A stretch of DNA of 64,000 bases from Endomicrobiales bacterium (GCA_963794945.1 CAWCFT010000009.1:72139-136138); one strand, 5' to 3'; shown: positions 8,542-29,213, counted from the stretch's first letter. The notes: generated by a model not told the origin, from the letters alone. Numbers and translations are program-made.

Positions 8542-8573
8542 TTTTTTGCTCCTTCGTATTTAAAATATATTTT

Positions 8574-9590: not shown

Positions 9591-9600
9591 AAGTATGCGT

Positions 9601-9629
9601 ATTATATTAGATTATCAATAATATGTCAA
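9601..9629 (-). promoter_or_regulatory. Sigma70 promoter for infC operon
   Basis: TTGACA (9629-9624), 17 nt, TATAAT (9606-9601): perfect consensus. Confidence 0.8.
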
Positions 9630-11392: not shown

Positions 11393-11532
11393 GGATTTCC
11401 GGTGTGTATTTCGACTTTTCAGGTATTTAAAATTAAATGCCTAATGGCGGGTCTACCTCTGGTGGAACACGAAGCTCTGACCCTCCGCTGTTGCGAATAC
11501 TCTAACCAACTATGAAAGATTTGTTGAAATGT

Positions 11533-11609
11533 TGGTGCCCGGTAGAGGACTCGAACCTCTGACCCCTTCCATGTCAAGGAAGTACTCTAACCAACTGAGC
11601 TAACCGGGC
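11533..11609 (-). tRNA. tRNA-Val(GAC)
   Basis: GCCCGGTTAGCTCAGTTGGTTAGAGTA CTTCC-TTGACAT-GGAAG GGGTCAGAGGTTCGAGTCCTCTACCGGGCACCA; cloverleaf with encoded CCA. Confidence 0.97.
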
Positions 11610-11692
11610 ATTTAAGTCGCAATACTGTTATATTTCTAGTTTTTAGACCGAAATGTTACTTCTGAAAAAACACAAGACTAGAACGTTTTTTG

Positions 11693-11721
11693 ATTATACA
11701 AAAAATATGTCTTAAATTCAA
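11693..11721 (-). promoter_or_regulatory. Sigma70 promoter upstream of tRNA-Val/thrS
   Basis: TTGAAT, 17 nt, TATAAT. Confidence 0.6.
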
Positions 11722-11760
11722 ATTTTAGTTTCTAAGATGAGAGAACATTTTCATTTTGTA

Positions 11761-12615
11761 TCATCGCGCCAGCCCCCTGCGCCTGCAATTACTTTCGATA
11801 CAATTTAGGGGAAGCTCTAAAAGCTTTAAGTCATATTTGAAAATATTGCCCAACAGCGGGCCTTGCAATTGGCCACAAGGCCTCACCGAACCATCGACCC
11901 CAATAACTGCAAAATCCATGCCGGCATTACAGCAAGCACCTGATGATTTTTGATTTGTTTCGAGATTTATCGAACCAGATGAATCTCTTTCTTCACAAAG
12001 CATATTCATGTCATCTTGATCCTTACCCCATCTTTCCGTAATATCCATTAATTTTAGTTCTTCAATTGAATATGCGTGCGGATATTCTTTGCCATTATAT
12101 TTGCCGCAGAATTGTGTCAAAGCCATATCGATATTTAAACCTTTAAAATACCTCTTGTAGTTAAGCATTTCTCTCAGTTGAAGTGGATGCGCCAGATAGC
12201 ATACATTACAGATAAACCCTGCTTTTCGCAGTTTTATGACATTGCCGGCAAATTTAAAGTGATCAGTTTTAAGAGGATGAAAAGTGGAATTAATTTCCAC
12301 CTTTGAAGCGTCATTCTTTAAGATAAACTCTTCCAAAGGGACAGATAGGTTAGTTGTAACATGAATAACATGCATTTTACTTAATTTGTATATAATATCA
12401 GCAAATCCCGGATAGAGAAAGGGCTCGCCTCCAGTAATGTATATCTTAATCGGTCCGTGCTCATCATAAATATTTTCCCACGCGGAGCACACTTCATCCA
12501 CGCTTCTGTCCGTACCATGCTGCTTTTTGATGTTATCCCATCCTGTTTGCGTAAAAAAGCAATATTCACACTTGTAATTGCACTCATATCCCATATCCCA
12601 GGTAAATATCTTCAT
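11761..12615 (-). CDS. Radical SAM protein with short Cys-rich (Twitch-like) C-terminus
   Basis: CNYKCEYC, ITGGEP, CNAG...DGSVRPC. Confidence 0.85.
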   Translation of the reverse strand: MKIFTWDMGYECNYKCEYCFFTQTGWDNIKKQHGTDRSVDEVCSAWENIYDEHGPIKIYITGGEPFLYPGFADIIYKLSKMHVIHVTTNLSVPLEEFILKNDASKVEINSTFHPLKTDHFKFAGNVIKLRKAGFICNVCYLAHPLQLREMLNYKRYFKGLNIDMALTQFCGKYNGKEYPHAYSIEELKLMDITERWGKDQDDMNMLCEERDSSGSINLETNQKSSGACCNAGMDFAVIGVDGSVRPCGQLQGPLLGNIFKYDLKLLELPLNCIESNCRRRGLAR

Positions 12616-12710
12616 AAATATCTCTCTTTATCTGATTCAATAATGTTGCAATAACCATTATTAGAATTGCCGCCGCTCACACGGAAACCGGTGCCAACAT
12701 GAAGCTAGCG

Positions 12711-13808
12711 TCATTTTGAAAGTTCCACAAAACACATCTCATTATCAGCCGCAATATCTATCAACTTAAAACCGCTGGCGGCGGCCATTCCCCCGATTTC
12801 AGTTATTCCAAGCTTATATTGTATCACATGTTTACTTACAGTCACAGAATCACTGCCAGGACCATTATAGGATTTGCCAAGCACGGCCGACCATATCTTT
12901 CTCTTTAATACGTTAACTGCCTTCTCTTTGAGGTCGATCCACGAAATCAATATCCTCCCGTTCTGCGAAAGGCACTTTTTAAGCTTCTTTAATGTTTCAA
13001 GCTGCTTTGCGGGATCCAGAATATTAAGCATTCTGGCAAATATGATGTAGTCATATTGTTCATCCGAATTAATGTTGTTTAAATTAATAGTTTTCACTTG
13101 CTTTCCCTGCCTTATTAATTTTGCGGCTTCTTCGGAATAGCCTCCGGACGACTGGATGTCAGCTATATTCTTTTCTAGTCCAACGTTTTGTATTTTACTT
13201 TCTGTAATCTTCAGGCTTTGCTGCCATTTTTCTAAAGATACGCCCATATTTGACCGCAATAATATATAATTTTTATAATAGCTTAAATCGGTTTCAGGTA
13301 AAATTAACGATAGTATTGCTTTAATATTAAGGCGGAACCGCTTCAAAACAAACGAAATATAAGATAAATTTAATATATTAATCGTGATAGAACAATATAG
13401 CAACAAAATACTTATGCTTTTCCCGATCGGCGAATCGAGGTTAATTTCATATCCATTCTTTTTTATCCTCACAACTCGGCCCAGGATATCATCATAAATA
13501 ACAAGCCTATCATCTTTAGCCACGTTGTTATCGCCCTTTGTGCAGAAACAAGGCCCGTTTTTGCCTTTAACCTTTTTTATAACTCTATGCGCGGTATTGA
13601 TGTCCAACGACCTGTCAATATTTTCATAAACAACTATATCTCCAACACGAATTATATCGGGAGATACCTTTTTAACAAAAAGTGAATCGCCGGATATCAG
13701 AAGGGGCCACATACTTCTCCCTTTTGACTTAAATATTACCTCATTTCCTTTTACAAGCGACTCTTTACCCAGTTCGTTCAAAGTCTTCCGAAATTTTGCT
13801 GAATCCAT
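12711..13808 (-). CDS. S24/S26 signal-peptidase-like protease fused to a methyltransferase-like domain
   Basis: GRSMWPLL.SGD, GDIVVY, AHRVIKK, TKGDNN; one hydrophobic segment; C-terminal YDYIIF...LKKCLSQNGRILI Rossmann-like motif. Confidence 0.7.
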   Translation of the reverse strand: MDSAKFRKTLNELGKESLVKGNEVIFKSKGRSMWPLLISGDSLFVKKVSPDIIRVGDIVVYENIDRSLDINTAHRVIKKVKGKNGPCFCTKGDNNVAKDDRLVIYDDILGRVVRIKKNGYEINLDSPIGKSISILLLYCSITINILNLSYISFVLKRFRLNIKAILSLILPETDLSYYKNYILLRSNMGVSLEKWQQSLKITESKIQNVGLEKNIADIQSSGGYSEEAAKLIRQGKQVKTINLNNINSDEQYDYIIFARMLNILDPAKQLETLKKLKKCLSQNGRILISWIDLKEKAVNVLKRKIWSAVLGKSYNGPGSDSVTVSKHVIQYKLGITEIGGMAAASGFKLIDIAADNEMCFVELSK

Positions 13809-13866
13809 TATAACGCCTCTATGCCCATGCTTATAGCTTCTATGATACTCTAAAGGACTGAATTTC

Positions 13867-14787
13867 CTATATTAATAATACACTATACTCATTTGTAATT
13901 TTCTTAATAATCATTTTTTCAATTGTTTTACTGAACTTCATAGGGCAATATCCGCTGTAGCAGGACCTGGATATTGTGATAATGGCAGGGTTGATAGCTT
14001 TATTTTTCAGCGTGTCGAATATTCTATTAATCTCTCCGTTTATAGCTTCGGTATCCTGAAAATATTCTTTCACTCTGGACTTTTTATGGCTAACAACAAC
14101 AATATACCTTCCATTGTCTTTAGAGAATTCTAACTTAATATTATCGTACAACAAATATTTATTTTTCGATAATAATTCCCTTTTTAAATATTGCCCGCGC
14201 GTTATTTCAATAGTGTGAAACAGCTCATTGCCGACAGAATCCCTGCAGGCAAAATAGTCCAGATCAATATCAAGCAATACTTTTTTATTTTGCGGAATAT
14301 GATCCATATCACATATATGTGAATCGAAATGTTTTATGTCGGGGAAAGCTTTGGTGAACATTTTGTTTTTTATAGGCGGTTCACTGCTTTTCTCGCACTT
14401 AATTATTTTCCCTTCCCCAAAAACAGAATAGACGATCATTTTGTGGTCTTCGGGTTTAATTTTTCTCCATTTTGGAAATACAAAATAAGCGTTTTTTACT
14501 ATTCCGCCAAGAATGGCCGGTAGGATAAAACTTCCTATATCGATTTGCATATCACCGCGGATAAAATCATTATAATAACCCGCGTAATCGGCGTATTTAT
14601 TCTTTGGTATGTAAATCGATTTTGACAGCGTATTCGGCGTACCCATATCGCTATGCGCATCCAAGTGCAATATATCCAACGGCTCATTAATATTATTTTT
14701 ATTTTTTTCTTTATGCCAGCAATAAAATGATTCATTGTGTTCGTCAACAATATAGACTGGAATTCTATTATTTTTTTTGGTTATCAT
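13867..14787 (-). CDS. UPF0489-family protein (arginase-fold; peptide-arginase candidate)
   Basis: IVDEHNE, LHLDAHSDM, IDIGSFILPA, LLDIDLDYF, ITISRS..SGYCP. Confidence 0.75.
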   Translation of the reverse strand: MITKKNNRIPVYIVDEHNESFYCWHKEKNKNNINEPLDILHLDAHSDMGTPNTLSKSIYIPKNKYADYAGYYNDFIRGDMQIDIGSFILPAILGGIVKNAYFVFPKWRKIKPEDHKMIVYSVFGEGKIIKCEKSSEPPIKNKMFTKAFPDIKHFDSHICDMDHIPQNKKVLLDIDLDYFACRDSVGNELFHTIEITRGQYLKRELLSKNKYLLYDNIKLEFSKDNGRYIVVVSHKKSRVKEYFQDTEAINGEINRIFDTLKNKAINPAIITISRSCYSGYCPMKFSKTIEKMIIKKITNEYSVLLI

Positions 14788-15048
14788 AATTTAATTCCTT
14801 ATACATACCGCCTATTAATTTCGAGGTTGAATCCCAATAAGTCAAACTAAATGCTAAAATTTGTGAAGAGTGAGAGAGTAGAATAAATATCTATATTACT
14901 CATTAGTAAACCCGCACACAATATATTTTTGTTATTAGATCAGGAAGGGAACTTTCGAGCATTTTTTCATCTCTATTTATGCCAAATGGTGACCCTTTTA
15001 TCAGAGCCCTCTGAAATCTATTATGTTATCAGATAGTATTTAGACGCT

Positions 15049-16161
15049 TTACACTTTTAAGTCGGTATTTAAAACCCTCGTTTCAGGGAAGAGACCTTCA
15101 TCGCGGGCAATTTTACAGAAGACAAAAGGCGCTAAAAACGATTTTTGCTCCCAATAAGCTTCCGCCCTGCATTTTCCAAGGCAGAAATTCTTCATCATGC
15201 ACTTCCCGCAAATTCCCTCAAGCTTTAAAGGCACGTCTTTTCTGATAATATTAAGAATCTTGTTATTTTCCCACACCTGCTTAAGTTTTGTGTCCTTAAT
15301 ATTGCCCATATTGAGTTCTTTAACGACACTACCTATTCCGCAAATTGATATTGTCCCATCACCCGTAATACCGATTATAGACTTTATTCCGCATACGCAC
15401 TTTTCAGTTTTGAGCTCTTCTATTGTTTTAAACGCCGGAGGAATATCAAAACACAGCTTGAGTTTTTTCTTAAGCCTTGGTCTGGACATATAGCTTTTCA
15501 TTTTTTTATTTGTTTTGAGTATTTCGCCAATAGTAAGCAATTCGCCTTTACTCTTCATAATATCCGCGCGGGAAACATTCATTATCGGGTTTATCTTCAG
15601 GCTGTTCACCCGCAAGGCCGCGCAAAGATCTATCATTTGTTTCATTTTACTTTTGTTTTCGTTCCAAAGGCTGCATATTACTTGTAAACTTAGCCCGGGG
15701 TTATATTTTCTCAACTGCCTTATTCCGTTTACAGCATTTTTGAATGACCCTTTTACATTCCTGAGTTTTTCGTGTGTTTGTTCATCAGGCCCGTCCAATG
15801 ATACCGCTACTTGCATCACTTTATAATCTCTTACAGCCTTAGCCTCTTTCTCGCCGATCAGGGTGCCGTTTGTTTCAATATGCATGTTCAATTGATTCTT
15901 TTTGATCCATTTAAACAGCTCTATAATATCTTTTCTTAAAAAAGGTTCTCCGCCGGTGATCTTCACTGTTCTAAGCCCCAGCTTTTTGGCTTGTTTTAGC
16001 GCGTTTATTATATAACGCAGCTCAATGTCTTTCTTGTTGCCGCCATTGTCATCAGGCATACCAGTAAAATCGGGGTTTATCCAGCAGTGCCTGCAGTTAA
16101 GGTTACAGTATTTTGAAAAATATAAATACACTGATTTTAAAAGATATTTTTTTGTTTTCAT
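15049..16161 (-). CDS. Radical SAM/SPASM peptide maturase, SynChlorMet ScmF-like
   Basis: YLYFSKYCNLNCRHCWINP, FDIPPAF, CGIKSIIGITGDGTISICGIG, LEGICGKCMMKNFCLGKCRA. Confidence 0.8.
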   Translation of the reverse strand: MKTKKYLLKSVYLYFSKYCNLNCRHCWINPDFTGMPDDNGGNKKDIELRYIINALKQAKKLGLRTVKITGGEPFLRKDIIELFKWIKKNQLNMHIETNGTLIGEKEAKAVRDYKVMQVAVSLDGPDEQTHEKLRNVKGSFKNAVNGIRQLRKYNPGLSLQVICSLWNENKSKMKQMIDLCAALRVNSLKINPIMNVSRADIMKSKGELLTIGEILKTNKKMKSYMSRPRLKKKLKLCFDIPPAFKTIEELKTEKCVCGIKSIIGITGDGTISICGIGSVVKELNMGNIKDTKLKQVWENNKILNIIRKDVPLKLEGICGKCMMKNFCLGKCRAEAYWEQKSFLAPFVFCKIARDEGLFPETRVLNTDLKV

Positions 16162-16164
16162 CGC

Positions 16165-17199
16165 TTAGTTTTCCCTTTTCCAGCAGTAAAGTTCAGTATT
16201 TTTAATCCCTCCGGGATAATGGTACGGGTAACACCTGTGCCCCCAGAAACAGATATACTGATGCTCGCATTCAACGCATTCCGGCATTTTTGTAATATCA
16301 ACATGCAGATCCTTCCTGAAACTCCGCAGCACTTTTGAATTTTTCCAAATCTCCTTAAAGCTGTTTTTGTAAAGGCTCCCGGCTTTTACTTCCCAAATAA
16401 CTTCACACGGAGTCACTGATCCGTCAGGCCGAATAGCGCACCTGGAAGTTGCCGCACCGCAGGGTGGGACTGTTATTTCCTTCATTTTAGGTTTAAACTT
16501 GCCAAGCCCTTTCAATTTATCATTCTGCTGCAGGTACGAGCCCGTTATAAAACCCGGGTATAGTTTCGAAAGCTTGACAATTTCTTCGATCGCTTTCCGC
16601 TCTTCATCAGGTGAAACATACACTTCCTTAAGGAAACACGCTGCGTTCCCGCCGTAAAATACGTGGTTAAACCTGACACTGCTTGCTCCGATCTCTTTTC
16701 CAAGCTTTACAACTTTTTCTATATCTCCGATATTAAGCTTGGTCACGGTAAACGAAAGAAGCGCCTGCCCGCCGTATTTGATAATATTTTTTATTCCTGC
16801 TACGGCGCGGTCAAACGTATTTTTGCCTCTTTGCCTTTCATGCGTACCTTTTGCGCCGTCTATGGACACAACGTAAGACCTAATATTAAAATCTTTTATT
16901 AGCATTTTTGCCATTTTATCCGTCATAAGAGTGGCGTTAGTGTTCATCGAGATCTTAATTTTATACTTTCGGAACCTTTCAAGAAGAGCCGGCAGGTCCT
17001 TCTTTACAAGCGGTTCCCCGCCAAAAATTGAGACATTGAATACTTTTGCCCGGCCCACTTCGTCGATAACGCTAAGCATCTTTTCAGTGGACATATCTCT
17101 TTCCCCCCAGCTTTGCTTGACTCCGCAATGCCTGCATCGTTGGTTGCATTTGCCTGTTACAGTGAAACATAATGACGTAGGTGCGGAATATATCTTCAT
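16165..17199 (-). CDS. Radical SAM/SPASM peptide maturase, ScmE-like
   Basis: CNQRCRHC, FGGEP, CGAATSRCAIRPDGSVTPC, ECVECEHQYIC...RC. Confidence 0.8.
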   Translation of the reverse strand: MKIYSAPTSLCFTVTGKCNQRCRHCGVKQSWGERDMSTEKMLSVIDEVGRAKVFNVSIFGGEPLVKKDLPALLERFRKYKIKISMNTNATLMTDKMAKMLIKDFNIRSYVVSIDGAKGTHERQRGKNTFDRAVAGIKNIIKYGGQALLSFTVTKLNIGDIEKVVKLGKEIGASSVRFNHVFYGGNAACFLKEVYVSPDEERKAIEEIVKLSKLYPGFITGSYLQQNDKLKGLGKFKPKMKEITVPPCGAATSRCAIRPDGSVTPCEVIWEVKAGSLYKNSFKEIWKNSKVLRSFRKDLHVDITKMPECVECEHQYICFWGHRCYPYHYPGGIKNTELYCWKREN

Positions 17200-17395
17200 C
17201 GCTTATCTCCTCTCAAACACTAACTTCCTGCTTAAAGACAAACTTTTTGAGTTGTGGCACAGGCTCTAAATTCGAAGGGTTCCATGTCGCTGGAGTGATT
17301 GAACAAGCTTAGCCTTTGCTTTATCCGCTTCAAAGTGTATTATTTCTGTCTCCGGCCATAAACAGTTCCAGCAGTCGTTGACTAAACCATTGATA

Positions 17396-17659
17396 TTAAT
17401 CCGCCCGCAACAGTATCTTTGATTTAACCAGGTCTTTAATTATGTTATTAATATCATCTTTAATGTCATCTATTTTAGCCACGTAGGCCTTTGACAGCTC
17501 ACCGTAAATATTTTCAATGTCCAGCCCTTTGTTTACCATTTGCCATACCTCACTGCCTGTCTTGTTAAGGTAACAATTTTCATTTGTATCAATGTTTACT
17601 ATCACAACCTCGCCGTCAATATCCCGCCAAAGAACATCCTTGTTAATTTTATATTTCAT
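17396..17659 (-). CDS. PqqD-family peptide chaperone (RiPP recognition element)
   Basis: 87 aa, VLWRDIDGEVVIVN...YLNKTGSEVW...L.K.Y...DI..IIKDL. Confidence 0.85.
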   Translation of the reverse strand: MKYKINKDVLWRDIDGEVVIVNIDTNENCYLNKTGSEVWQMVNKGLDIENIYGELSKAYVAKIDDIKDDINNIIKDLVKSKILLRAD

Positions 17660-17936
17660 TTCCCGCCTCCAGCAAGCCGTCCTTTTTCATTTTTTTAATG
17701 AATAATAATATATCCGGCCTTATCTTTTTATTGTTTTTGCCGTACTTATCTGTTGCTTTTGCGATAATATCTTCGATGCTGTATTTTCCGTTGCAAAACC
17801 CGCATATATATGCGCCGGTTTCATTGAGCGTTTCCATACTCCCTGTTTCCGAATTAAATACAATAGCCTCTTTGCCTTCGCGCCTGAAAACTATTTTTGG
17901 GTTTATAACGAAATAAATATTTTTCCTACTCATCAA
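17649..17936 (-). CDS. PqqD-family peptide chaperone (RRE), ScmD-like
   Basis: NPKIVFRREG.EAIVFNSETG...LNETGAYI...NGKYSIEDI...DILLFIKKM. Confidence 0.85.
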   Translation of the reverse strand: MMSRKNIYFVINPKIVFRREGKEAIVFNSETGSMETLNETGAYICGFCNGKYSIEDIIAKATDKYGKNNKKIRPDILLFIKKMKKDGLLEAGNEI

Positions 17937-18191
17937 AACCTCCTGTGCCGCTTTATGTAAATAATTTCTTGAATCGGCTTTTTAATAAACCTCGATTTTT
18001 TATTCCTGTTCCACCTAACCTGTCATTCAGCAATGAATTGCCGCACGTTAAGTGTTATAAACAGCAGCCTTTTTCATGGAATGTTGAAAATCCGTTTATG
18101 GTTTAGCGGCTGGACACATTTTTAAACTGGGCTCACAGTTATTGTTAAGAATTGGTATTTTATCTTATGGATTCTTTTAAGCCAAAAAATA

Positions 18192-18401
18192 TTAGTCCAG
18201 CGGAGCTGTGCCTGGCCCACATGTGCTAAAAGGATAGCTACCTCGGACACATTCCCCTTCCGAAACACCACTACTACCACCAACGCACAGCGGAAGCGCA
18301 CTGTATCCGGATGCTTCAAACTTGTAGTCTGTTTTGTTCCCGAATAGTATCTTTTCAGGTTTTATCCATTTCATCTTGCTTTGCTTCTTCCTGCTTTTCA
18401 T
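18192..18401 (-). CDS. RiPP precursor peptide 6 (3 CxxG)
   Basis: MKSRKKQSKMKWIKPEKILFGN...FEASGY; core has CVGG, CVRG, CGPG. Confidence 0.85.
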   Translation of the reverse strand: MKSRKKQSKMKWIKPEKILFGNKTDYKFEASGYSALPLCVGGSSGVSEGECVRGSYPFSTCGPGTAPLD

Positions 18402-18480
18402 CTTTCTTTCTCCCAAAACAACTTACACCATTGGTTAGCTGTTGTGTTATGACAAGATTGCTGGAAGTTTTCAACATCTG

Positions 18481-18699
18481 TCACCATTCTATTATAGGCC
18501 TGTTACCAGTATTGCAAGTGTTTACTCCGACAGCGGCACCACCGCCATTACATATATAGCCTGCAAAACCTTCACCACCGGTGACGCACTGAAAATCGTA
18601 TCCGGATGCTTCAAACTCGTAGTCTATTTTGTTCCCAAATATTATCTTTTCGGGTTTTATCCATTTCATCTTTTTATGTTTCCTGATGTTTTTATTCAT
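18481..18699 (-). CDS. RiPP precursor peptide 5 (3 CxxG)
   Basis: MNKNIRKHKKMKWIKPEKIIFGN...FEASGY; core has CVTG, CNGG, CNTG. Confidence 0.85.
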   Translation of the reverse strand: MNKNIRKHKKMKWIKPEKIIFGNKIDYEFEASGYDFQCVTGGEGFAGYICNGGGAAVGVNTCNTGNRPIIEW

Positions 18700-18752
18700 T
18701 TTTCCCAATCCTGGAATCTGGCCTGCAATGGCCAGGCATCTCGCCCGTACTG

Positions 18753-19040
18753 CTACTGCGCTATCGGCGCAACAGTAACAATTTGACCGTCGCTACACGC
18801 ATTCCTGCTAGGGCCAACAGCGCTGATACCTAGGCTACAATCATACAAAGCAGTGTTACCGTACGTACAATCTGACGCATTGCCGCTACCACTAATACAA
18901 CCGAGACCAGCAACACAAGATGCCGCATCGCCAATACCAGTGGAACAATTGGCAGCTACAATCATTGCTTCATTCCCAAAGGAGATTTTTTCAGGTTTTA
19001 TCCATTTTATTTGTTTTTGTTTCCTAACGTTTTTATTCAT
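18753..19040 (-). CDS. RiPP precursor peptide 4 (6 CxxG)
   Basis: KWIKPEKISFGNEAMIVAAN; core has CSTG, CVAG, CISG, CTYG, CSLG, CSDG. Confidence 0.85.
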   Translation of the reverse strand: MNKNVRKQKQIKWIKPEKISFGNEAMIVAANCSTGIGDAASCVAGLGCISGSGNASDCTYGNTALYDCSLGISAVGPSRNACSDGQIVTVAPIAQ

Positions 19041-19238
19041 TCTTTATCCAATTACTAGATTATTGAAAACCCCAACAAGGCTCAACTTGATCATCCGGAC
19101 TTCATCTACATTCACTCGCCCTCTTTCTATATTTGTTTCAATTAAATCAAGACAGGGCCCAATTTACCTGTCATGCAATCGTAATTATTCTAGGGTTAGA
19201 ATAAACATCACCACTTAAGCTGAAGAAAGATTATAAAG

Positions 19239-19475
19239 CTACCTCAACATGGGGTTGCCGCCTCCAGTACAATCGCTAGAAGGGTACGAACCGCCTGAAC
19301 AGTGCAAGCCTTGGTTACCTGGGGTACACGAAAAAGCGCCTCCACCACTACTGCATTGGTTAGCATCACTGCCGCCGGAAGTACAATTAGCAGATGAAAT
19401 AATTGAGTCATTACCGAATACTATCTTTTCAGGTTTTATCCATTTCGTTTTACTTTGCATCTTTCTGTTTTCCAT
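19239..19475 (-). CDS. RiPP precursor peptide 3 (5 CxxG)
   Basis: AAGGAG RBS; KWIKPEKIVFGNDSIISSAN; core has CTSG, CSSG, CTPG, CSGG, CTGG. Confidence 0.85.
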   Translation of the reverse strand: MENRKMQSKTKWIKPEKIVFGNDSIISSANCTSGGSDANQCSSGGGAFSCTPGNQGLHCSGGSYPSSDCTGGGNPMLR

Positions 19476-19557
19476 TATTTCTCCTTCAATAGCTTACGCC
19501 ATTAGTAAACTGTTGTGCCCTGACAAAATTGCCGGAAGTTTTCTATATCTGTTAAAT

Positions 19558-19761
19558 TTATTCTGCAGCACCGACGCCCGGAGTGCAAGGACTTCCAGTA
19601 TCGTCGGAACCACCGTTACAAAGAAGAACAGCACGATTGCCAGGGCCACACTGATGGCCGATATCGTATCCAGCTGCTGTAAACTCGTGGCCCAAATTGT
19701 TCCCGAATACTATCTTTTCAGGTTTTATCCATTTTATCTTACTTTGATCTTTTTTTGTCAT
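19558..19761 (-). CDS. RiPP precursor peptide 2 (3 CxxG)
   Basis: GGAG RBS before ATG 19761; KWIKPEKIVFGN...FTAAGY; core has CGPG, CNGG, CTPG. Confidence 0.85.
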   Translation of the reverse strand: MTKKDQSKIKWIKPEKIVFGNNLGHEFTAAGYDIGHQCGPGNRAVLLCNGGSDDTGSPCTPGVGAAE

Positions 19762-19881
19762 TTTTCTCCAAGTTGCTTGTGCTTGTTCTGAACACAACCT
19801 TTTGCTGTATCTCCTTGGCAAAGCCACATCAGTCATCTGTATGGATACAGCGTACGCAAAAAGTTCCGCGGATATACGCCG

Positions 19882-20133
19882 CTATAACATTTTTATAGGG
19901 CGAATACCTGGGTTGCAAGGGCTGCCATCTCCACCGCCTGTCCAGCAAGCGGTATAATCAGCGCCATTGCCAGAGCTACACATATTACCAGACGGTTGAG
20001 TCGAGCCATCTTGACAACCTGCAGGTATAGTGTATCCAGCTGCATTAAAATTGTCACCCATATCGTTCCCAAATGTGATTTTTTCAGGCTTTATCCATTT
20101 CATGTTATTTTGATTCTTTCTGTTCTTTGTCAT
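19882..20133 (-). CDS. RiPP precursor peptide 1 (4 CxxG)
   Basis: MTKNRKNQNNMKWIKPEKITFGN...FNAAGY; core has CQDG, CSSG, CWTG, CNPG. Confidence 0.85.
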   Translation of the reverse strand: MTKNRKNQNNMKWIKPEKITFGNDMGDNFNAAGYTIPAGCQDGSTQPSGNMCSSGNGADYTACWTGGGDGSPCNPGIRPIKML

Positions 20134-20158
20134 TTTCTTTTCCAATATTATTTATAAT

Positions 20159-21429
20159 CACTTCTGTCCGGTTAAAAAGCGAACGCCATTGTTAGTTGGC
20201 GGTCTGTGTTTTTGATTTTAGGCAGCAATCGATCATTCAAATTAAGTAAGTCAATGAGATTGAGGCGTTCAAGAAGCGTTTCCTGAATGACTTTGTGCAG
20301 GTAGAACAGTGAATATTTATATTTTGACTGATATTTGATGTAAGACAGAAGCAAGTAGTAGCACATGGCAATCCAGATCTGCGTAAGCACAGCGTTCTTT
20401 GAAGTGCCAAAGAATGTTTTGATTTTAAGGTTCTGCTTGATCCACTTGAAAAAGACTTCAACTTGCCAGCGGGCTTTATAGATACCAGCAATAGTAGAAG
20501 CGGCAAGCTTGAAGTTGTTGGTAATAAAAACAAGCAGTTTATCGGTTTGCTTGTCATAGTAACGGATCAAGCGCAGTTCTTTGGGATAATCCTGCTTCTG
20601 ATAAAAGCCGTTCAAGGCGATAATTTCATCTGAAATTACGCTGTTTTTTGATGATTCAGGATGCTGTCCGGAAACAGTGTAATTGATGTTGTCTTTGGCT
20701 CTGGTAACGAAGAAAGCGCCTACTGTGTCTATTGAATTAAACCAGGCAAAGTCTATATAGCCCTTGTCCATGCAGTAGATGCTGTCCGGCACAATGTCAA
20801 AAGAAGAACGGGCAACGGTTATTTCGTGCTTTTTGGCATCTGTGACAACCATGAACGTGGGTATCTGCCCGGCATGGTCTAACTGGCAATGCAGTTTTAT
20901 AGCCCCTTTGGTAGTGCGGAATTTTGCCCATGAAAACATTGACAGGCACAAGTCAATGACTGTGGCGTCAAAAATGAACAATGGGTTTTTAAACTTGAAT
21001 TTGTGTGTAGGGGTTATATTCTTACAGCGTTCAAGCAAGGCATAAAACAACCCTTCATATATGCGGTAGTCGCGTTTCTGGTTGGCATCGGCAAGAGTAG
21101 AACGGCGCACAATGGCAAGGCCGACATGGTAGAGCTTTCCGGCTTGCGCCAGAAAAGCATTAACAATATCACGCAAGCTGTCCTTGCCGCTGATTTGGGC
21201 ATAAAGCATGACTGTTAGTTGTTTCCAGCAATTGAAGGTTTTGACGTATCTGTCCCCGAAATGACGAGAAACGAGGTTTTCAAAACGATGTCTCGGAATA
21301 AACGTTTGCAATTGGTTCATGATAGTGTTATAATGCATCTTATCAATCCTCCGTCAGTAGATTTGTTCCTTTGCAGAAACATTCTACCTGATCGGGGGAT
21401 TTTATTCAAATTTTAACCGGACAGGTGTG
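20159..21429 (-). mobile_element. IS4-family insertion sequence, 1271 bp
   Basis: IRs CACTTCTGTCCGGTTAAAA (20159-20177) and TTTTAACCGGACAGGTGTG (21411-21429), 17/19 match; 9-bp direct repeat ATTTATAAT at 20150-20158 and 21430-21438. Confidence 0.92.
20172..21338 (-). CDS. IS4-family DDE transposase (DUF4372-like N-terminus)
   Basis: FDATVI, MDKGY, IYKARWQVEVFFKWIKQNL (YREK motif). Confidence 0.95.
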   Translation of the reverse strand: MHYNTIMNQLQTFIPRHRFENLVSRHFGDRYVKTFNCWKQLTVMLYAQISGKDSLRDIVNAFLAQAGKLYHVGLAIVRRSTLADANQKRDYRIYEGLFYALLERCKNITPTHKFKFKNPLFIFDATVIDLCLSMFSWAKFRTTKGAIKLHCQLDHAGQIPTFMVVTDAKKHEITVARSSFDIVPDSIYCMDKGYIDFAWFNSIDTVGAFFVTRAKDNINYTVSGQHPESSKNSVISDEIIALNGFYQKQDYPKELRLIRYYDKQTDKLLVFITNNFKLAASTIAGIYKARWQVEVFFKWIKQNLKIKTFFGTSKNAVLTQIWIAMCYYLLLSYIKYQSKYKYSLFYLHKVIQETLLERLNLIDLLNLNDRLLPKIKNTDRQLTMAFAF

Positions 21430-21507
21430 ATTTATAATAATTAATAACTGCCTTTGTTCTGAAGCCCGATCACGGATTTCCGGCAATACAAACACATTAT
21501 GTGAGGA

Positions 21508-22611
21508 TCAAGTATTATCAATTATTCCATATAACTTTTTCATCGCCGTTTCGAACGTTTTTTCGCCGAAACGCCTTTTTGCCATATTAAAGGCGTTAAA
21601 TGACAGCTTGTTCCAAAGCATTTCGTTATTATATACTTTTACTACCTTTTTCGCAAACTCTTCCGGCTTATCAGCGACTAAAACCTCTCTGCCGTGTTTC
21701 GCGCCTATGCCTTCGACACCGATCGAACTCGTCACAACCGGGGTCCTTGAGATCATTGAATCAACTATCTTCTTCTTTACACCCGCCCCATAACGCATGG
21801 GGCATACAAAAACACGGTATTTGCCGAGCTCATCAAAAATATCATCTACGCGCCCATGGGTCAGTAAACCTCCGCCCATTCTATGAAAATGGTCCGCCCC
21901 ATTGCCTGCCACATGGAATTTTATGCTGGGGATCTTTTTTTTGATCAAAGGAAATATTTTTCTCATAAAATATTTTATAGTATCGTCATTGGCCCCTTCA
22001 TTTCCGTATTGCCCGAAAAACACAAGGCCGGACCTTTCCGCGAACTTTCTCGGAACTGTTCCCTTTTCAGGAACTTCCGTGGGCGTAGGTATGATCATTA
22101 TTCTTTTGCCTGGAAGTTCTTTCCTGAATATATCCCTTTCGGGCTTTGATATTGCGATTAGCGTGTCAGCCAGCTTGAGCCCTTCAAGTTCATTAATTTT
22201 ACTTTTTCTAAAAAAAGAATCACGGCTTTTTACGCCGTTTATTTGCATTTCTCTTCTTTGCCTGATGTATGTGATCTCATGAGTGTCAACAATAATGCGG
22301 TTAAATAACGGCAGGCAGCTGCGGAAACCGGCTATGCAGTAATATGACCTGAATATCGCTGTTTTTATTCTGTTTTTTAAAATAAACCTGTTGATGTTTG
22401 CAACATGATTCTTATCCAACGGAAAAACAATTTTTACTCCCATATCTATAAGCGCTTTGCCGCTTAAACCACTATTCCATCGGACGGTGAGCGGCAGCAG
22501 AAACACTCTGTACCTTTTTGCCAGGCTTTTACAAAGGCGGTAAACCCTCCAGTCTCCTGCATTAGTTTCAAAATGTGGGATATGAGTGACGACAACAAGG
22601 ATGCTTTTCAA
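21508..22611 (-). CDS. Glycosyltransferase family 4 (GT-B)
   Basis: VDTHEI..IR..RE, PMRYGAGVKKKI, PVVTSSIGVEG. Confidence 0.85.
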   Translation of the reverse strand: MKSILVVVTHIPHFETNAGDWRVYRLCKSLAKRYRVFLLPLTVRWNSGLSGKALIDMGVKIVFPLDKNHVANINRFILKNRIKTAIFRSYYCIAGFRSCLPLFNRIIVDTHEITYIRQRREMQINGVKSRDSFFRKSKINELEGLKLADTLIAISKPERDIFRKELPGKRIMIIPTPTEVPEKGTVPRKFAERSGLVFFGQYGNEGANDDTIKYFMRKIFPLIKKKIPSIKFHVAGNGADHFHRMGGGLLTHGRVDDIFDELGKYRVFVCPMRYGAGVKKKIVDSMISRTPVVTSSIGVEGIGAKHGREVLVADKPEEFAKKVVKVYNNEMLWNKLSFNAFNMAKRRFGEKTFETAMKKLYGIIDNT

Positions 22612-22644
22612 GTAACGTTCCTTTTGCTTTAGCCTTACTCTTCT

Positions 22645-23532
22645 TTAACTTGCATAATTCCGCGCCGTCCGCCAGTGGTGGGCCTCTACAACAGAGGCAC
22701 GGCCTTCTGTTTGCTGTTTTTCATAAATGCTGTAAAATCTTCTCCCTGCTTTTCCCCACTTCTTTAAGAATTTCTTCTTGGCCGCGCGGCACACCGCGTC
22801 TATTCTTCCGTATTTGTGCTTGAATATTCCGGACTTCGTGGCTTTGCTGATAAAATGAAATATAAAAACATTCATGGCATTAACCAGTTTGTACCCTGCC
22901 TTTTTTGCCCTGAACGAATATTCAAGGTCTTCACCGCTGCATGGATAGAACCTTTCGTCAAACAGGCCTATTTTGTCGACAACGCTTCGTTTTATCAGCA
23001 TGCACATTCCGTGAATATAAAGCGCCTCATCATACTGCCCTTTTCTACTCAGCGATAACATCACCGCGGCTTTTTGGATTTCTTTTATATTTCTAAACCC
23101 GGCGATAGCTGGAAAAAGGCCATAATCGTTTATGACATTATTGCTCGCGCAGCCAACAATGCCTGTCTTTTTATCGCTTTCCGCGCAGCTTACCAGGCCC
23201 TCAAGCCAGTTAATAGTCACTATTACGTCATTGTTCAGATAACAAACATATTTACCTTCGGATATATATATCCCGCGGTTTAACGCCCCGGATACGCCAA
23301 GGTTCCGTTTGCTTATTATCGGCTTAAACGCCCGTATCGAGCTCCTGGCTCCAACGGCCAGCCTGTTTTTAAGGGTTTTGAAATACTTTCCGGTGCCATC
23401 GGATGAACCGTTATCAATTACTATCAGTTCAAAAGGGTATGATGTGTATTTAAGTATGCTGTTAATGCACATCTTTGTGAATTTAAGCTCATTGAAACAA
23501 GGTATTATTATCGAGACAATATTTTCTGTCAT
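22645..23532 (-). CDS. Glycosyltransferase family 2
   Basis: SIIIPCFN, IVIDNGSSDGT, LNND, GLFDERF...EDLEY. Confidence 0.9.
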   Translation of the reverse strand: MTENIVSIIIPCFNELKFTKMCINSILKYTSYPFELIVIDNGSSDGTGKYFKTLKNRLAVGARSSIRAFKPIISKRNLGVSGALNRGIYISEGKYVCYLNNDVIVTINWLEGLVSCAESDKKTGIVGCASNNVINDYGLFPAIAGFRNIKEIQKAAVMLSLSRKGQYDEALYIHGMCMLIKRSVVDKIGLFDERFYPCSGEDLEYSFRAKKAGYKLVNAMNVFIFHFISKATKSGIFKHKYGRIDAVCRAAKKKFLKKWGKAGRRFYSIYEKQQTEGRASVVEAHHWRTARNYAS

Positions 23533-23642
23533 ATAGAATTATTGATCTTTTTGCGGCCAGAACCAGCTAATATTAGCAACAATAATTATAAAATAATGCG
23601 CAAGAGTTTTCCGGAAGAACAGAAAACATCAAACAAAGACGC

Positions 23643-24425
23643 TTAAAGTATTTTAAAAACAACCTCGCTTTGCTTTTTTTCCTTAATTCTGACACTTTGC
23701 TCATATTGCCCTGTTATTTCATCTATATTTCCAAAACCCAGCTGTTCACCGTGATTTATGTAAAGCGCCCTTTTACAGTATTTTTTTATACTGCCGATCC
23801 CGTGCGAAATGAACAATATCGTGCTGCCACTATTAAGAAGCCTTTCGATCGCGCCGATGCACTTAGTCTGGAATGAGGCATCGCCAACGGCCAACACTTC
23901 ATCGATCATTATTATGCCGGAAACTGTTTGTATAACGGTAGCAAAAGCTAGGCGGGCTCTCATGCCGGATGAATATTCTCCAAGCCTCGTTTCCATAAAC
24001 CCGTCAAGCTCGGCGAATTCCGTTATTTCCGGCAGTTTTTGGTCTATTTGTTTTCTCGTCATGCCGTGCAGAGCTCCGTAAAGATACACGTTCTCCACAG
24101 CGGTGAACCGCTGGTTAAAACCGAGCCCGAGCTCAAAAATACATGAAACCTCTTCCCTGACCACGTAGCTCCCGACGGTCGGGGCCATGATACCTGAAAG
24201 GATCCTTAACAGGGTTGTTTTGCCCGCGCCATTCGGCCCGATAATAGGCAGCATCTCTCCCCTGTTCACCGTAATGTTTATATCACGCAGCGCCCAAAAA
24301 TCTTTTGTAGGGTATTCACCGCTCAACTTATACTTTAAAGTTGTAAACAGCGTATGCCTTTCTTTTGTGCCTATCCTGAATTTTTTAGATAGGCCCTTGG
24401 TCTCTATCAATGGTTCGTTCAGCAT
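23643..24425 (-). CDS. Polysaccharide ABC exporter ATP-binding subunit (Wzt/TagH-like)
   Basis: FWALRDI, GPNGAGKTT, YSSGMRARLAF, DEVLAVGDASF. Confidence 0.9.
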   Translation of the reverse strand: MLNEPLIETKGLSKKFRIGTKERHTLFTTLKYKLSGEYPTKDFWALRDINITVNRGEMLPIIGPNGAGKTTLLRILSGIMAPTVGSYVVREEVSCIFELGLGFNQRFTAVENVYLYGALHGMTRKQIDQKLPEITEFAELDGFMETRLGEYSSGMRARLAFATVIQTVSGIIMIDEVLAVGDASFQTKCIGAIERLLNSGSTILFISHGIGSIKKYCKRALYINHGEQLGFGNIDEITGQYEQSVRIKEKKQSEVVFKIL

Positions 24426-25189
24426 ATCTTTTCCACAAAGAATCCTTCCATTTTTTTAAACAACCTGTATCCCACGATCAAAATTACTGTCGAGAGCACG
24501 AATACATAAATAAGCCCCGGCAGGTCGGGGAATTTATTGTCGATTAATATTTGCCTGGTAGCTTTTATAATATGCGTCATAGGGTTAAGGAGGATTATCC
24601 TCTGCTTGCCTACGCTAAGCATATCCATTGAATAGAATATCGGAGTTATGAATATGCCTATGCTCATCAGTATGCCCCATATCCTTGATATATCAAGAAA
24701 ATATACGCCTATTGTGGCAAGAACAAAAGAGAGCGCGACCACAAGATAAATATTCAAAGCGAGTATCGGGAGCAGTAGAATAACTTTTATGCCAACGTGC
24801 CCTTTAATAATAAGAAAGACAACTATCAATATAAATAATTCCAGCAAATGGATGTAGAGAGCGGACAATACCGAGCACATGACCAGCACCGACTTCGGGA
24901 AGTTTATGCTTTTAATATACATGCTGTACCTGATAAGCACAAAAATGGCCGAGCTCGTAGCGGACGCAAAAAAGTTCCATTGAACGAAACCTATGATCAG
25001 GTAAAGAGGGAAATCCGGTATACGCGAGCCCATCCATTTTACGAACAATCCGTAAAGGACAAGATAGTAGATCAGCGGATTGAGCAACGTCCACAAGAAT
25101 CCCGCGACCGTACCCTGATCCCTCATTTTGAAATCAGCCGTGGCAAGAGAGAAAACCATCGTCCAGTAATTTTTCTTGAGCATTTCCAT
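24419..25189 (-). CDS. Polysaccharide ABC exporter permease (Wzm/TagG-like)
   Basis: DFKMRDQGTVAGFLWTLLNPL, TPIFY, NPMTH. Confidence 0.9.
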   Translation of the reverse strand: MEMLKKNYWTMVFSLATADFKMRDQGTVAGFLWTLLNPLIYYLVLYGLFVKWMGSRIPDFPLYLIIGFVQWNFFASATSSAIFVLIRYSMYIKSINFPKSVLVMCSVLSALYIHLLELFILIVVFLIIKGHVGIKVILLLPILALNIYLVVALSFVLATIGVYFLDISRIWGILMSIGIFITPIFYSMDMLSVGKQRIILLNPMTHIIKATRQILIDNKFPDLPGLIYVFVLSTVILIVGYRLFKKMEGFFVEKIC

Positions 25190-25361
25190 TATTACGCCGG
25201 ATCTCCTTCAAAACATGGGCACAGGCAAACAGTCGAAAGGGCCTGAATAAATATTGAACGCGGGGCTAATAAGCAACCCAGCGTTCCCTGTATTCGCGTT
25301 CATTAAGCTCACTGTTCATTGACACCGGATTTTGAATATTTAATACAAACCACCCCAACAC

Positions 25362-26323
25362 TCAGTTTATGCCTTTTTTAAATGACCTGAGAGCATACCC
25401 TATACATCCTCCGTGGCATGTTTTTCTGATAAAATGCTTGCATTTACGGCACTTCGGTTCTGCTCCAAGCTCTTGTATATTTTTAAACCTGTCATTAAAA
25501 TATTTATCCGCGTCTCTCACAGTATTAAAATCATTCATCGAAGCGTTGAACAACCCCGATGTTGCAAAGCATCTCCACATAGTTAAATCTATATTTATGT
25601 CATTTGCACCCTTGCAGAATAACAATGGAAAATTATCATCATAGTACAACTGTCCAATCTGCTTTTTTGTAAAACTGCATAGCCTGAAGCCGCAATCGAA
25701 ATCTATTCTAATATTATGCTTGTCACATTCTTTAGAAAAACTTACAACATATTTTCCGATTTGCCCGTGGTCCAGTGCTGACAAATGTTTGTTGCCGCCA
25801 TCAGCTAACGGAGCAGCTAACCCCAGCCTGACCACCTTTTTTAAATTATATTTTCTTATTAAACTGATAAGCCAACTACCATTAAAGTTTCTGTCATGTA
25901 TGGTATAACCTGCTCTTGCTATTTTATTGAGCCCTTTCATTGTTTTATTAAGTATTTTCCAAGACTTAATAGAATAGCTTTCGGGGTTATTTACGTTTAA
26001 AATGACATTTACTTTTTTCGGGTCGACCCCCTTCAAATATTGCAACACCTTGTCTTTCATAATGCCGTTTGAAAATATTCTAACACTTATCCCTGACTTC
26101 AAGATCATATCAATAGCCGCATTAAATTGCGGATGAAGAGTCAGCTCGCCCCAAGTATTCCCAAAGTATTTTCATTGGATTTTTTCGCGAAATTAATTAC
26201 TTTATTTATATTTTCAAGAGTAACATAATGATCCTCTCCTGCGCTTTTTGTGTCTTGTATTTTGCCTTTTGCAAAACAATACTGGCATTTTAGATTACAG
26301 ATATTTGTGAACAGGACATTCAT
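25362..26323 (-). CDS. Radical SAM protein with C-terminal Cys cluster (frameshift near 26150)
   Basis: TNICNLKCQYC; G-run indel in GILG(G)ELTLHP joins the two ORFs; C-terminal CRKCKHF...CHGGC. Confidence 0.8.
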
Positions 26324-26545
26324 TGTTTCCTCTTTTTAAGGGCCGTCTAGCCATTGCAATAGAACAAAAAGGTACTGTAAAACCAAATTAAAGTGTCGTA
26401 GGTATCAATGAAATATTTTACAGATAGGCTGAAGAAAGGAATTATATATGCTGTCTTATTAGTGGTTCCCATGTCAATGAAGTGCTATAACCAACCGAGT
26501 TAAATGGATATATATTAGATTATAACTTGCAAATGAAGGCTAAAA

Positions 26546-26621
26546 TGGAGGTGCGGGTCGGAGTTGAACCGACGAATGACGGTTTTGCAGACCGCCCCCT
26601 TAACCACTTGGGTACCGCACC
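26546..26621 (-). tRNA. tRNA-Cys(GCA)
   Basis: GGTGCGGTACCCAAGTGGTTAAGGGG GCGGT-CTGCAAA-ACCGT CATTCGTCGGTTCAACTCCGACCCGCACCTCCA. Confidence 0.97.
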
Positions 26622-26689: not shown

Positions 26690-27397
26690 CTATCTAGATG
26701 CGTTTATAATACCCCTAACTTTTTTAACGCATTCATTTGAATGGCTTAAAATACTCTTCTCTTGAAAACGAGCCACTTTCCAGCCATGCCTGCGCAGGAA
26801 ACTATCTTTTGCCTTATCCTTCCTTTTCTGAGCCCTGCCCGAGTGCGCCTTGATATTATCGCACTCAATAGCTATCTTCACACTTCTTTGGAGTACAACC
26901 AGGTCAATCCGAAACCTTTTTCCTTTAACCGATACACTGAACTCTCTTTTCGTTTTTATGCCGGCGCGGTGTAGCGCTCTTTCCAATATGCTTTCGGTAT
27001 CAGGCACTCCGTAAAGTTGGAGGATATTCCGTGCGGAAAGCAACGTCTTTAGTTCAGTGAACCCGAAAGACACCCTGCGCGGTACAATATTTTTTATCGG
27101 CCTTGCCAGTTTAATTATTTTCTTAAATTCGTACTTATAATATTTACACTCCGCACTCGGATGCCCGCCCTCATTGGGCAGCAGATATTTCCTTTTAACT
27201 TTCCTCTTTTTCGATATACGTGCATAAAATTCTATGCGCTTCCCTCTCTTGCCGAATAATGAAGGCTGGTAAAAAGCGATGTAGTCGAATTTTCGCTTAA
27301 ATGAAAAGGCCACCGGTATCCTGTACCAGTGGTCTTTCAAAAGGATATCAAGATCTATCCGGCGCTTCAACACCCCAACCAAAACATTTTTTACCAT
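26690..27397 (-). CDS. DUF559/Vsr-like endonuclease-domain protein
   Basis: HWYRIPV N-terminal domain; RIDL...IAIECD..KAH...DKAKDSFLRRHGWKVARF. Confidence 0.75.
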   Translation of the reverse strand: MVKNVLVGVLKRRIDLDILLKDHWYRIPVAFSFKRKFDYIAFYQPSLFGKRGKRIEFYARISKKRKVKRKYLLPNEGGHPSAECKYYKYEFKKIIKLARPIKNIVPRRVSFGFTELKTLLSARNILQLYGVPDTESILERALHRAGIKTKREFSVSVKGKRFRIDLVVLQRSVKIAIECDNIKAHSGRAQKRKDKAKDSFLRRHGWKVARFQEKSILSHSNECVKKVRGIINASR

Positions 27398-28132: not shown

Positions 28133-29213
28133 TTATATAAAAGACAACAGTTTTTTATTATTTGTGAATGTTTTGACCTGCTCCAGCAGGAAATTCATTG
28201 CCTCTTCCGGCTTCTTATGGGATAATATTTTTCTCAAGTCGATTATTGATTTGATGTCTTCCTTATCATAGAGCAGTTCTTCTTTTCTTGTGCCGCTTTC
28301 CATTATATTGATGGCCGGAAATATTCGTTGCTCTGCCAGCGCCCTGTCCAAAACTATTTCACAGTTTCCCGTGCCCTTGAATTCCTGAAAAATAAGGTCG
28401 TCCATGCGCGAACCCGTGTCGACCAGCGTTCGTGGCGAGTATAGTGACCGAGCCGCCATTCTCTATTTTGCGGGCTAGGCCGAGGAAACGGCGCGGTATC
28501 TGCAGCGCTTCGCTATCCACCCCCCCGGACATGGTCCGGCCGCTTGACGAGCCCCTCTGATTGAAAGCCCGCGCCATGCGGGTCAGGCTGTCAACAAGTA
28601 TTACCACATCCTTTTTGCATTCCAATTCTATCCTTATCTGCGCTAATACAAGTTCTGTCAGCGCGACGTGTTCCGCTACCGTGCGGTCGCTGCTGCTTGC
28701 GATAACCTCCGCATCGACACCGCGTTTGAAAAATGTTACTTCTTCGGGCCGTTCATCTATAAGTAATACTATTATCCGTGCGTCGCCATCAGCCTCGCGA
28801 ATGGTCTTTGCGATCTTCATCAAAAGCGTTGTCTTGCCCGCTTTTGAAGGTGAAACTATTAGCCCTCTGGTACCTTTGCCGATGGGGGTAATCAGGTCAA
28901 GTATCCGCATACTGATATCCGTTGACTTTGAAAGATCGAACCTTTCATTTGGGTCTACAGCTGTCAGCTCATCGAACGGTGTCCTATTGGAGAACTCACT
29001 TGGAGAAAGGCCGCAGATGGTATCTATCGAAGTGATCTGTTTATTTTCTTCTTTCCCTTCGACAAAAGCGCCGGATATAAGATGATACTGTTTGACTGAT
29101 GCCTGAGGCACAACAACATCATCAGCGCACGGGACAAATGATCTTTTAGGGTCGCGCAGCGCCCCCGCTCCATTGCGCGTGAATTGAAAAATACCTTTTG
29201 TTTGTATAGACAT
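28133..29213 (-). CDS. rho: Transcription termination factor Rho, short form (frameshift near 28430)
   Basis: PIGKGTRGLIVSPSKAGKTT, LIDERPEEVT, DSLTRMARAFN, DTGSRMDDLIFQEFKGTGN, SGTRKEELL. Confidence 0.9.

Follow-up and report, generated by a model that had tools for sequence, protein, structure and literature searches.

A putative chimeric RiPP operon on a tRNA-Val island of an Endomicrobiales bacterium combines a SynChlorMet-type core and a peptide arginase with tailoring genes of a second module

A 64,000-nucleotide stretch of DNA from an Endomicrobiales bacterium (GCA_963794945.1, CAWCFT010000009.1:72139-136138; hereafter the window) carries, at positions 11,761 to 26,323, a predicted gene cluster for peptides that are ribosomally synthesised and then modified post-translationally (RiPPs). 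We read this block, with a probability of roughly 0.55, as a chimeric RiPP operon on a tRNA-Val island, in which tailoring genes of a second module lie interspersed among those of a SynChlorMet (SCM) core and a peptide arginase. Homology searches establish the two-source make-up of the genes, as the best matches split cleanly: RiPP recognition element 1 (RRE1) and the ScmE-like and ScmF-like maturases find SCM loci, whilst two glycosyltransferases (GT2 and GT4), RRE2, an S26 peptidase fusion and the last radical S-adenosylmethionine (SAM) enzyme find the second module or its lineage. The two sets are interleaved, with SCM genes flanking RRE2 on both sides; the RRE1 and RRE2 genes overlap by 11 nt and the ScmE-like and ScmF-like genes are 3 nt apart.

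The first-pass annotation had described a co-oriented block between tRNA-Cys and tRNA-Val. All of the genes that it listed were found in the sequence, all on the minus strand, in the order given and with the same flanking tRNA genes. The features are as follows, with paired numbers giving bit score and model cut-off.

26546–26621, minus: tRNA-Cys(GCA), host gene just beyond the island
26468–26509, minus: att-like scar marking the upstream end of the island, a decayed copy of the tRNA-Val(GAC) 5′ half
25362–26323, minus: first radical SAM/SPASM-like gene, in two pieces owing to a 1-nt frameshift within a run of G
24419–25189, minus: Wzm-type ABC-2 permease (PF01061 48.6 bits; NF050109 58.7/380)
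23643–24425, minus: Wzt-type ABC ATPase (best matches TagH and galactan Wzt models, below cut-off)
22645–23532, minus: GT2 glycosyltransferase, second-module type (PF00535)
21508–22611, minus: GT4 glycosyltransferase, second-module type (PF13692)
20161–21422, minus: IS4-family insertion sequence (IS), transposase 20172–21338 (NF033592 287/115), inverted repeats
19882–20133, minus: putative precursor P1, 83 amino acids (aa), 4 CxxG, 1 core Arg
19558–19761, minus: putative precursor P2, 67 aa, 3 CxxG, 1 core Arg
19239–19475, minus: putative precursor P3, 78 aa, 5 CxxG, 1 core Arg (ScmA model 18.6/35)
18753–19040, minus: putative precursor P4, 95 aa, 6 CxxG, 1 core Arg
18481–18699, minus: putative precursor P5, 72 aa, 3 CxxG, 1 core Arg
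18192–18401, minus: putative precursor P6, 69 aa, 3 CxxG, 1 core Arg (ScmA model 14.4/35)
17649–17933, minus: RRE1 (PqqD), SCM type (PF05402 49.4)
17396–17659, minus: RRE2 (PqqD), second-module type (PF05402 39.9)
16165–17199, minus: ScmE-like radical SAM/SPASM maturase (TIGR04250 158.9/400)
15049–16161, minus: ScmF-like radical SAM/SPASM maturase (TIGR04251 317.5/400)
13867–14787, minus: UPF0489, OspR-like predicted peptide arginase (PF12640 62.9/27)
12711–13808, minus: S26 (Ser-His) peptidase fused to a predicted class I methyltransferase-fold domain, second-module type (TIGR02228 63.2/51.85)
11761–12615, minus: last (small) radical SAM, second-module type, lineage multi-copy family
11533–11609, minus: intact tRNA-Val(GAC), marking the downstream end of the island, with thrS next

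The RREs, the SPASM domains of both maturases and the shared leader of the precursors support the earlier assignment of the block to radical-SAM RiPP clusters. The suggested kinship with the SCM cassette (TIGR04248–TIGR04252: ScmD, ScmC, ScmE, ScmF, ScmA) is likewise upheld, since the top NCBIfam matches of the two maturases are TIGR04251 (317.5 bits, ahead by 175 bits) and TIGR04250 (158.9 bits), each under its cut-off of 400, and a tree places both enzymes among SCM maturases. The tree was a quick one of 88 rows, from a subsample of 72 E-like and 83 F-like sequences with SH-aLRT support only; in it both maturases nest with Omnitrophota SCM-like maturases at 99–100 support, the ScmE-like enzyme in a 100-support clade with Omnitrophota ScmE-like enzymes. 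The models for ScmD (cut-off 100; 28.5 and 20.2 bits for the two RREs) and ScmA (cut-off 35; two of the six peptides, at 18.6 and 14.4 bits) also stay below threshold. Homologues from the same branch behave similarly, with four ScmF-like proteins at 300–344 bits and an Omnitrophota ScmE-like protein at 163. The top 14 matches of RRE1 all come from ScmF loci. The block has the architecture of an SCM-like system, namely an RRE, an E/F pair and CxxG-repeat precursors with an aromatic-x-x-Pro leader, and also shares an S26 peptidase neighbour with SCM cassettes. We assign RRE1, both SPASM enzymes and the precursors to an Omnitrophota-type branch of the SCM cassette on sequence grounds.

Confirmed relatives of ScmF number at least 494 from genomes and at least 388 from metagenomes, and we read the loci of the best 80 of each (n = 160, not independent). 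Among the 59 ScmF loci of at least 15 kb, 55 have an ScmE-like gene, 44 an ScmC-like kinase, 43 an RRE, 38 an MsbA-type exporter, 33 a PF14907 nucleotidyltransferase and 30 an S26 peptidase; precursors number none in 13 loci, one in 40, two in 5 and three in 1. The polysaccharide export genes wza/wzc adjoin 20 of these loci, a hint of a general tie between SCM products and surface glycans. Cassettes of the SCM type that encode CxxG precursors are widespread, which leaves the earlier proposal of a new class unsupported. The block differs from them in having six tandem precursors, a Trp-type leader, an arginase, an S26-methyltransferase fusion and GT2, GT4, Wzm and Wzt genes. Calling the system complete was an overstatement, since it has no peptide-type ABC exporter, kinase or nucleotidyltransferase. 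The reported lack of ScmC holds, with TIGR04249 finding no match in the genome (85.9% complete), where the nearest kinase-like gene lies in a separate cassette on contig C14. Because all SCM cut-offs failed and ScmC is lacking, we regard the locus as a divergent, chimeric variant that is predicted to work like an SCM cassette, neither a strict SCM member nor a new class. ScmF-like genes turned up in 2 of 401 genomes of the phylum, this one included; 40 close relatives yielded no orthologue (best match 34% identity), and a single-protein ScmF search of genome contigs and of plasmids gave no match. A literature search covering open-licence papers and preprints, with subscription journals and supplements outside its scope, found none on SCM cassette chemistry.

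The six CxxG peptides recognised at the outset are borne out by a common invariant leader, K-W-I-K-P-E-K-I-x-F-G-N, and by the placing of all 24 Cys (4, 3, 5, 6, 3 and 3 in P1–P6) in CxxG, that is with Gly at +3, compared with 0.21 for the frequency of Gly in the cores. These paralogues of 67–95 aa have a basic N-terminus, and their cores, which hold few aromatic residues, are 29–49% identical in pairs. Among 90 related leaders, 9 are of the Trp type. A profile run against 1.84 billion representatives recovered five of the window peptides, one outside homologue (P0175) with the same leader, and five chance repeat matches; a second search gave no additional clear homologue, and no further copy was found elsewhere in the genome. 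The profile had no match in five same-order genomes, a search run without a positive control. In 89 related cores, chosen for having at least two CxxG motifs, 460 of 515 Cys lie in CxxG with variable spacing, mostly 9–13. Cys numbers are odd in 53 of the 89 and in 4 of the 6 local peptides, on which grounds an obligatory disulfide ladder was rejected. A site of signal-peptidase type, [AV]x[GA], precedes the first Cys by at most 8 residues in 62 of the 96 linkers of the family, against 26.8 ± 4.2 and never more than 43 in shuffles; 5 of the 6 local peptides have it as well. A tryglysin-type Trp-Lys cross-link was rejected, as Trp and Lys lie in the invariant leader and the models WgkB (128–143, cut-off 650) and WgkC (17–31, cut-off 110) were not reached. 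A promoter scan gave 52 against 42.6 ± 7.7 in shuffles, not clearly higher.

The GT2, GT4, RRE2, S26-fusion and last radical SAM genes match a second, apparently lineage-specific RiPP-like module, seen in two genomes of the same order (G003:C18, L255:7857-9353 and L250; G006:C1, L251 and L256:1503-3089). There GT4, GT2, at least two B12 radical SAMs, one or more RREs, a small radical SAM and a homologue of the S26 fusion occur together, in G003 in an order similar to that of the block. The S26-fusion homologues are full length, at 26% (G003) and 24% (G006) identity, and the last radical SAM has its nearest homologues in the same two genomes (47%, directly after the S26 fusion, and 40%, respectively). 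GT2 scores 174 bits against G003 module genes versus 81 in SCM loci, GT4 matches the G003 GT4 at 36% over 347 aa (216 bits versus 81 in SCM loci), and the top matches of RRE2 are the G006 and G003 module RREs. Each of the two genomes also has a GT2-PqqD fusion followed by a peptide of 37 or 32 aa with a basic Y-K-K-P leader and without CxxG; the searches made there found no ScmF orthologue, arginase or CxxG precursor. Compared with these relatives, the block lacks the short peptide, the GT2-RRE fusion and the B12 radical SAMs, and genome-wide scans found no Y-K-K-P-type peptide or GT2-RRE fusion either. The notion of one coherent, dedicated system lacks support in that form, as five genes match a module that exists without ScmF, these precursors or the arginase.

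The S26 domain of the fusion was correctly called (TIGR02228 passed; S32 and H74 invariant in 14 homologues), and its partner, left unnamed before, can now be given as a predicted class I methyltransferase fold, from a structural model (pLDDT 79.5) and its Foldseek matches. PF08242 reaches 19.8 of 30 bits there, and the SAM-binding motif I is degenerate; a single-sequence model of the fusion (pLDDT 38.5) was unusable, and atlas matches of the C-terminal part, below 0.9, serve as leads only. The last radical SAM was rejected as an SCM-specific enzyme, being found in none of the 160 ScmF loci and belonging to a multi-copy lineage family with 9 matches in this genome (up to 9 copies). The family occurs in 18 of 122 class genomes and in 12 of 12 other S26-fusion genomes, which are kin and not independent. 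Wzm-like genes occur in 3 of the 160 ScmF loci, and Wzm/Wzt and the first radical SAM fit neither gene set well. One of two loci with homologues of the first radical SAM is a PqqD/radical SAM/ABC cluster; in G608 (L253:4789-11860) the homologue is clustered with an ABC exporter, a B12-type radical SAM, PqqD and a Cys-rich 63-aa peptide.

Further RRE and radical SAM loci were noted in passing. The genome's second RRE cassette (G000:C14, ~51090-54400; L213:2091-5400) holds a kinase-like gene, PqqD, a radical SAM/SPASM gene, an S26-like gene, a very large protein and a peptide of 48 aa that has three Cys and a Y-K-R-P leader. At G000:C13 (~3400-20050, L212) and at 530–3214 of the window, paralogues of the last radical SAM and B12-type radical SAMs follow each other by turns in long arrays. 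In G176 (L209:463) a short peptide similar to those of the second module is followed by PqqD, a radical SAM and an AMP-binding enzyme, opposite GT, S26/beta-helix and UPF0489 genes.

The arginase is the most distinctive addition to the SCM core. The gene flagged earlier as UPF0489 appears to encode an intact peptide arginase: it matches PF12640 (62.9 bits, cut-off 27) and the OspR structure 8BRP (E = 1.7e-25), and it keeps EEHNEAF-, DxHxD- and LDIDLDYFSC-like Mn-binding motifs with E16, H17, D43, H45, D47 and D173/D175/D177, whose conservation was checked in 43 aligned sequences. These include the residues given as Mn ligands in PMC10028609. The block arginase shares PF12640 and the metal ligands with OspR (landornamide) and the FlmR/OhkR arginases; it differs in that it stays under the cut-off of the FlmR/OhkR model NF052474 (161.7, cut-off 350) and neighbours CxxG precursors. 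Excerpts of PMC12703449 list NHLP, N11P, SCIFF, SCCRRSCN, DD(I/V)LF and MGXRRSSE precursors, none of them CxxG- or ScmA-type. No arginase was found in the 160 ScmF loci, in 50 tested ScmF genomes (of 80), or in 401 genomes of the phylum of an Omnitrophota genome, whilst the same profile is positive in 6 of 401 genomes of this phylum, this one included. Two distant homologues in the phylum adjoin PqqD, radical SAM and S26-like genes and a short peptide; in G196 (L210:383-2714) the neighbours of a TPR-fused UPF0489 are a PqqD-like gene, a short peptide with Cys, a radical SAM and an S26-like gene.

The whole block is a 14.9-kb, low-GC island in tRNA-Val, with a tRNA fragment at one end, an empty site in relatives and atypical composition. 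The scar lies 36 nt past tRNA-Cys and is identical to tRNA-Val at 32 of 42 positions, against a best of 27 in 500 shuffled queries. In 25 of 29 relative loci tRNA-Cys lies 6–469 bp upstream of tRNA-Val(GAC); of the other four, one has the reverse order and three are without tRNA-Cys, two of these at contig ends. Island GC is 39.6% with the IS excluded, against 46.2% and 49.1% in the flanks, and no integrase was found among the island's open reading frames. The displaced piece (26468–26509), upstream of the island, is the 5′ half of tRNA-Val; at islands the displaced fragment is more usually the 3′ half. The IS4 element is a recent insertion, ~25 nt upstream of the first precursor; it has a 9-bp target duplication and five further genome copies at 99.7–100% identity. 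Beyond the island, tRNA-Cys has a DUF559/REase-like gene (26690–27397) directly upstream.

The first radical SAM is present as annotated, though a one-base frameshift, located in a run of G near 26141–26150, interrupts its reading frame; both pieces align end to end with one intact homologue. The break is likely an assembly error, because pheS, single-copy in the assembly, is frameshifted too. The frameshifts in the window in pheS (7120–8146), a second rho copy (28133–29213) and a B12 radical SAM (1635–3214) suggest indel errors in the assembly. A search of public runs gave five DNA runs with small shares and no RNA run. Contigs of four of them do not span the break but match the IS and, exactly, short parts of the island; these runs may be the source sample itself and were not used as support. 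The split pieces have no Logan listing, a weak absence because exact P1, P5 and Wzm are likewise unlisted there.

Binding of the leader by an RRE at an aromatic-x-x-Pro motif is established RiPP logic. Here RRE1 very probably binds the W-x-x-P leader and presents the six precursors to ScmE and ScmF, acting together. The two enzymes would then modify each CxxG independently, and we lean towards a thioether from the Cys sulfur to a carbon within or beside the motif, with the Cα of Gly(i+3) the simplest acceptor. The variable CxxG spacing and the odd Cys counts favour such a local, per-Cys reaction over fixed disulfide pairs. Type 2 sactipeptides (GggB, QmpB), described as having unnested short thioether rings (PMC9389541), and the CrpC/CrpA system, in which CrpC is reported to cross-link CxxQ/D repeats (PMC13692751), resemble the block in their short unnested Cys motifs and SPASM enzymes, a likeness of motif and domain. 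They differ in having a single maturase, and CrpC in its fused RRE and its CxxQ/D motif. No model of a characterised maturase reached its cut-off on the block enzymes.

A different chemistry is a less probable but substantial alternative, in which ScmE and ScmF epimerise, form C–C cross-links or alter residues near Cys and leave the thiols free, which might for instance let a repeat scaffold bind metal or Fe-S. The nearest solved relatives of the maturases are distant and mixed (SkfB, PqqE and other radical SAMs, E = 1e-21 to 1e-9). Two enzymes for one motif also imply at least one non-obvious reaction, and the invariant Gly could be conformational. However, a strict Cys with a fixed-offset motif is the pattern of known thioether RiPPs, and the cores are poor in aromatic residues for cyclophane chemistry.

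For the later steps of the chimeric pathway, the odds tilt slightly towards conversion of the single core Arg to ornithine by the arginase. All six cores have exactly one Arg, at varied positions, against 22 of 90 related cores with one and 42 of 90 with at least one, which is suggestive of an arginase target; the naive probabilities of 0.002 and 0.017 come from a post hoc test on related paralogues. The chances are about even that RRE2 and the S26 domain cleave off the leader behind A-x-G/A. Either the N-terminus exposed in this way or the ornithine amine may be methylated by the fused methyltransferase; in enteropeptin, according to PMC12703449, N-methylation follows arginase action. It is possible, though doubtful, that GT2, GT4, Wzm and Wzt glycosylate and export the product in place of the canonical kinase, nucleotidyltransferase and exporter. 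Glycosylation itself is plausible by analogy, because RRE-glycosyltransferase fusions are on record (PMC7470986, PMC12710340) and, according to PMC8498205, pseudomycoidin is phosphorylated and then glycosylated by a kinase and a nucleotidyltransferase. The paeninodin and pseudomycoidin lasso clusters, with their HPr kinase and nucleotidyltransferase, offer a model for the roles of ScmC and the nucleotidyltransferase in canonical SCM cassettes; unlike them, the block has no lasso cyclase, kinase or nucleotidyltransferase, and a lasso peptide was discarded for want of a cyclase. The fullest version of the scheme is improbable: two RREs would read one chimeric leader, and six poly-thioether (Cys-Gly) scaffolds would become an ornithine-bearing, N-methylated, glycosylated library, freed of its leader by S26, exported by Wzm/Wzt and displayed or secreted like a surface polysaccharide.

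Several observations weigh against a functional chimeric operon. The gene combination was seen in one genome only, and the closest ScmF relatives (54–65%) could be read in context on one 1.96-kb contig. The kinase, nucleotidyltransferase and ABC exporter missing here are usual in long SCM loci (44, 33 and 38 of 59), and their lack may mean an incomplete cassette. In 7 of 9 genomes whose neighbourhoods were read (six genomes of one family, and G007) the S26-methyltransferase homologue sits by itself amid housekeeping genes, and the last radical SAM family is present without any SCM gene. The Arg pattern is post hoc, on paralogues that are not independent, and P0175, the sole outside precursor with the same leader, has no core Arg; the 45 close homologues of the arginase are known as proteins, without gene neighbourhoods. 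The pathway is a prediction from the genes.

A rival reading is accreted cargo, in which two unrelated systems were collected, the SCM core works or decays alone, the arginase is a passenger, and a surface glycan or a different, unassembled peptide is what GT2, GT4, RRE2, the S26-methyltransferase, the last radical SAM and Wzm/Wzt act on. We consider this unlikely, yet it deserves serious attention. The two sequence sources of the block, the lone S26-methyltransferase homologues, the old decayed att scar together with a recent IS and the 85.9% completeness of the genome all favour it, as does a glycan-type locus on contig C4 that has no RRE and holds GT2, a radical SAM, GT4 and, in truncated form, a paralogue of the last radical SAM. 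Against it, the two gene sets are interleaved and not adjacent blocks, with overlapping RRE genes, and the absence of a Y-K-K-P-type peptide or GT2-RRE fusion from the block and the genome-wide scans means that no other substrate for RRE2 and the S26 fusion is in sight. A new RiPP class that is ancient and self-contained, with all 14 enzyme and transport genes dedicated to P1–P6, is very unlikely: the single strand, single island and uniformly low GC, and a leader with one outside homologue among the 1.84 billion representatives, speak for it, but the maturases nest within the SCM family, five genes trace to another module, and the full gene set did not turn up a second time among the ScmF loci, ScmF genomes and phylum genomes examined.

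In conclusion, what is new here is the gene make-up, an SCM core joined by an arginase and second-module tailoring genes, and not a RiPP class. SCM-type cassettes are found in hundreds of genomes and metagenome contigs, and this locus is a compact test set for the respective roles of ScmE and ScmF, offering six natural substrates with one leader and 3–6 CxxG motifs for one enzyme pair, with kinase and nucleotidyltransferase absent. Under the proposed pathway, peptide arginases would gain a new type of precursor, and S26 peptidases would be indicated as leader proteases of RiPPs. The locus also exposes a second RiPP-like system in related genomes, with a short peptide, a GT2-RRE fusion and B12 radical SAMs. 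The arrangement looks like natural module swapping between two RiPP systems, and the block may yield a small library of unusually decorated peptides.

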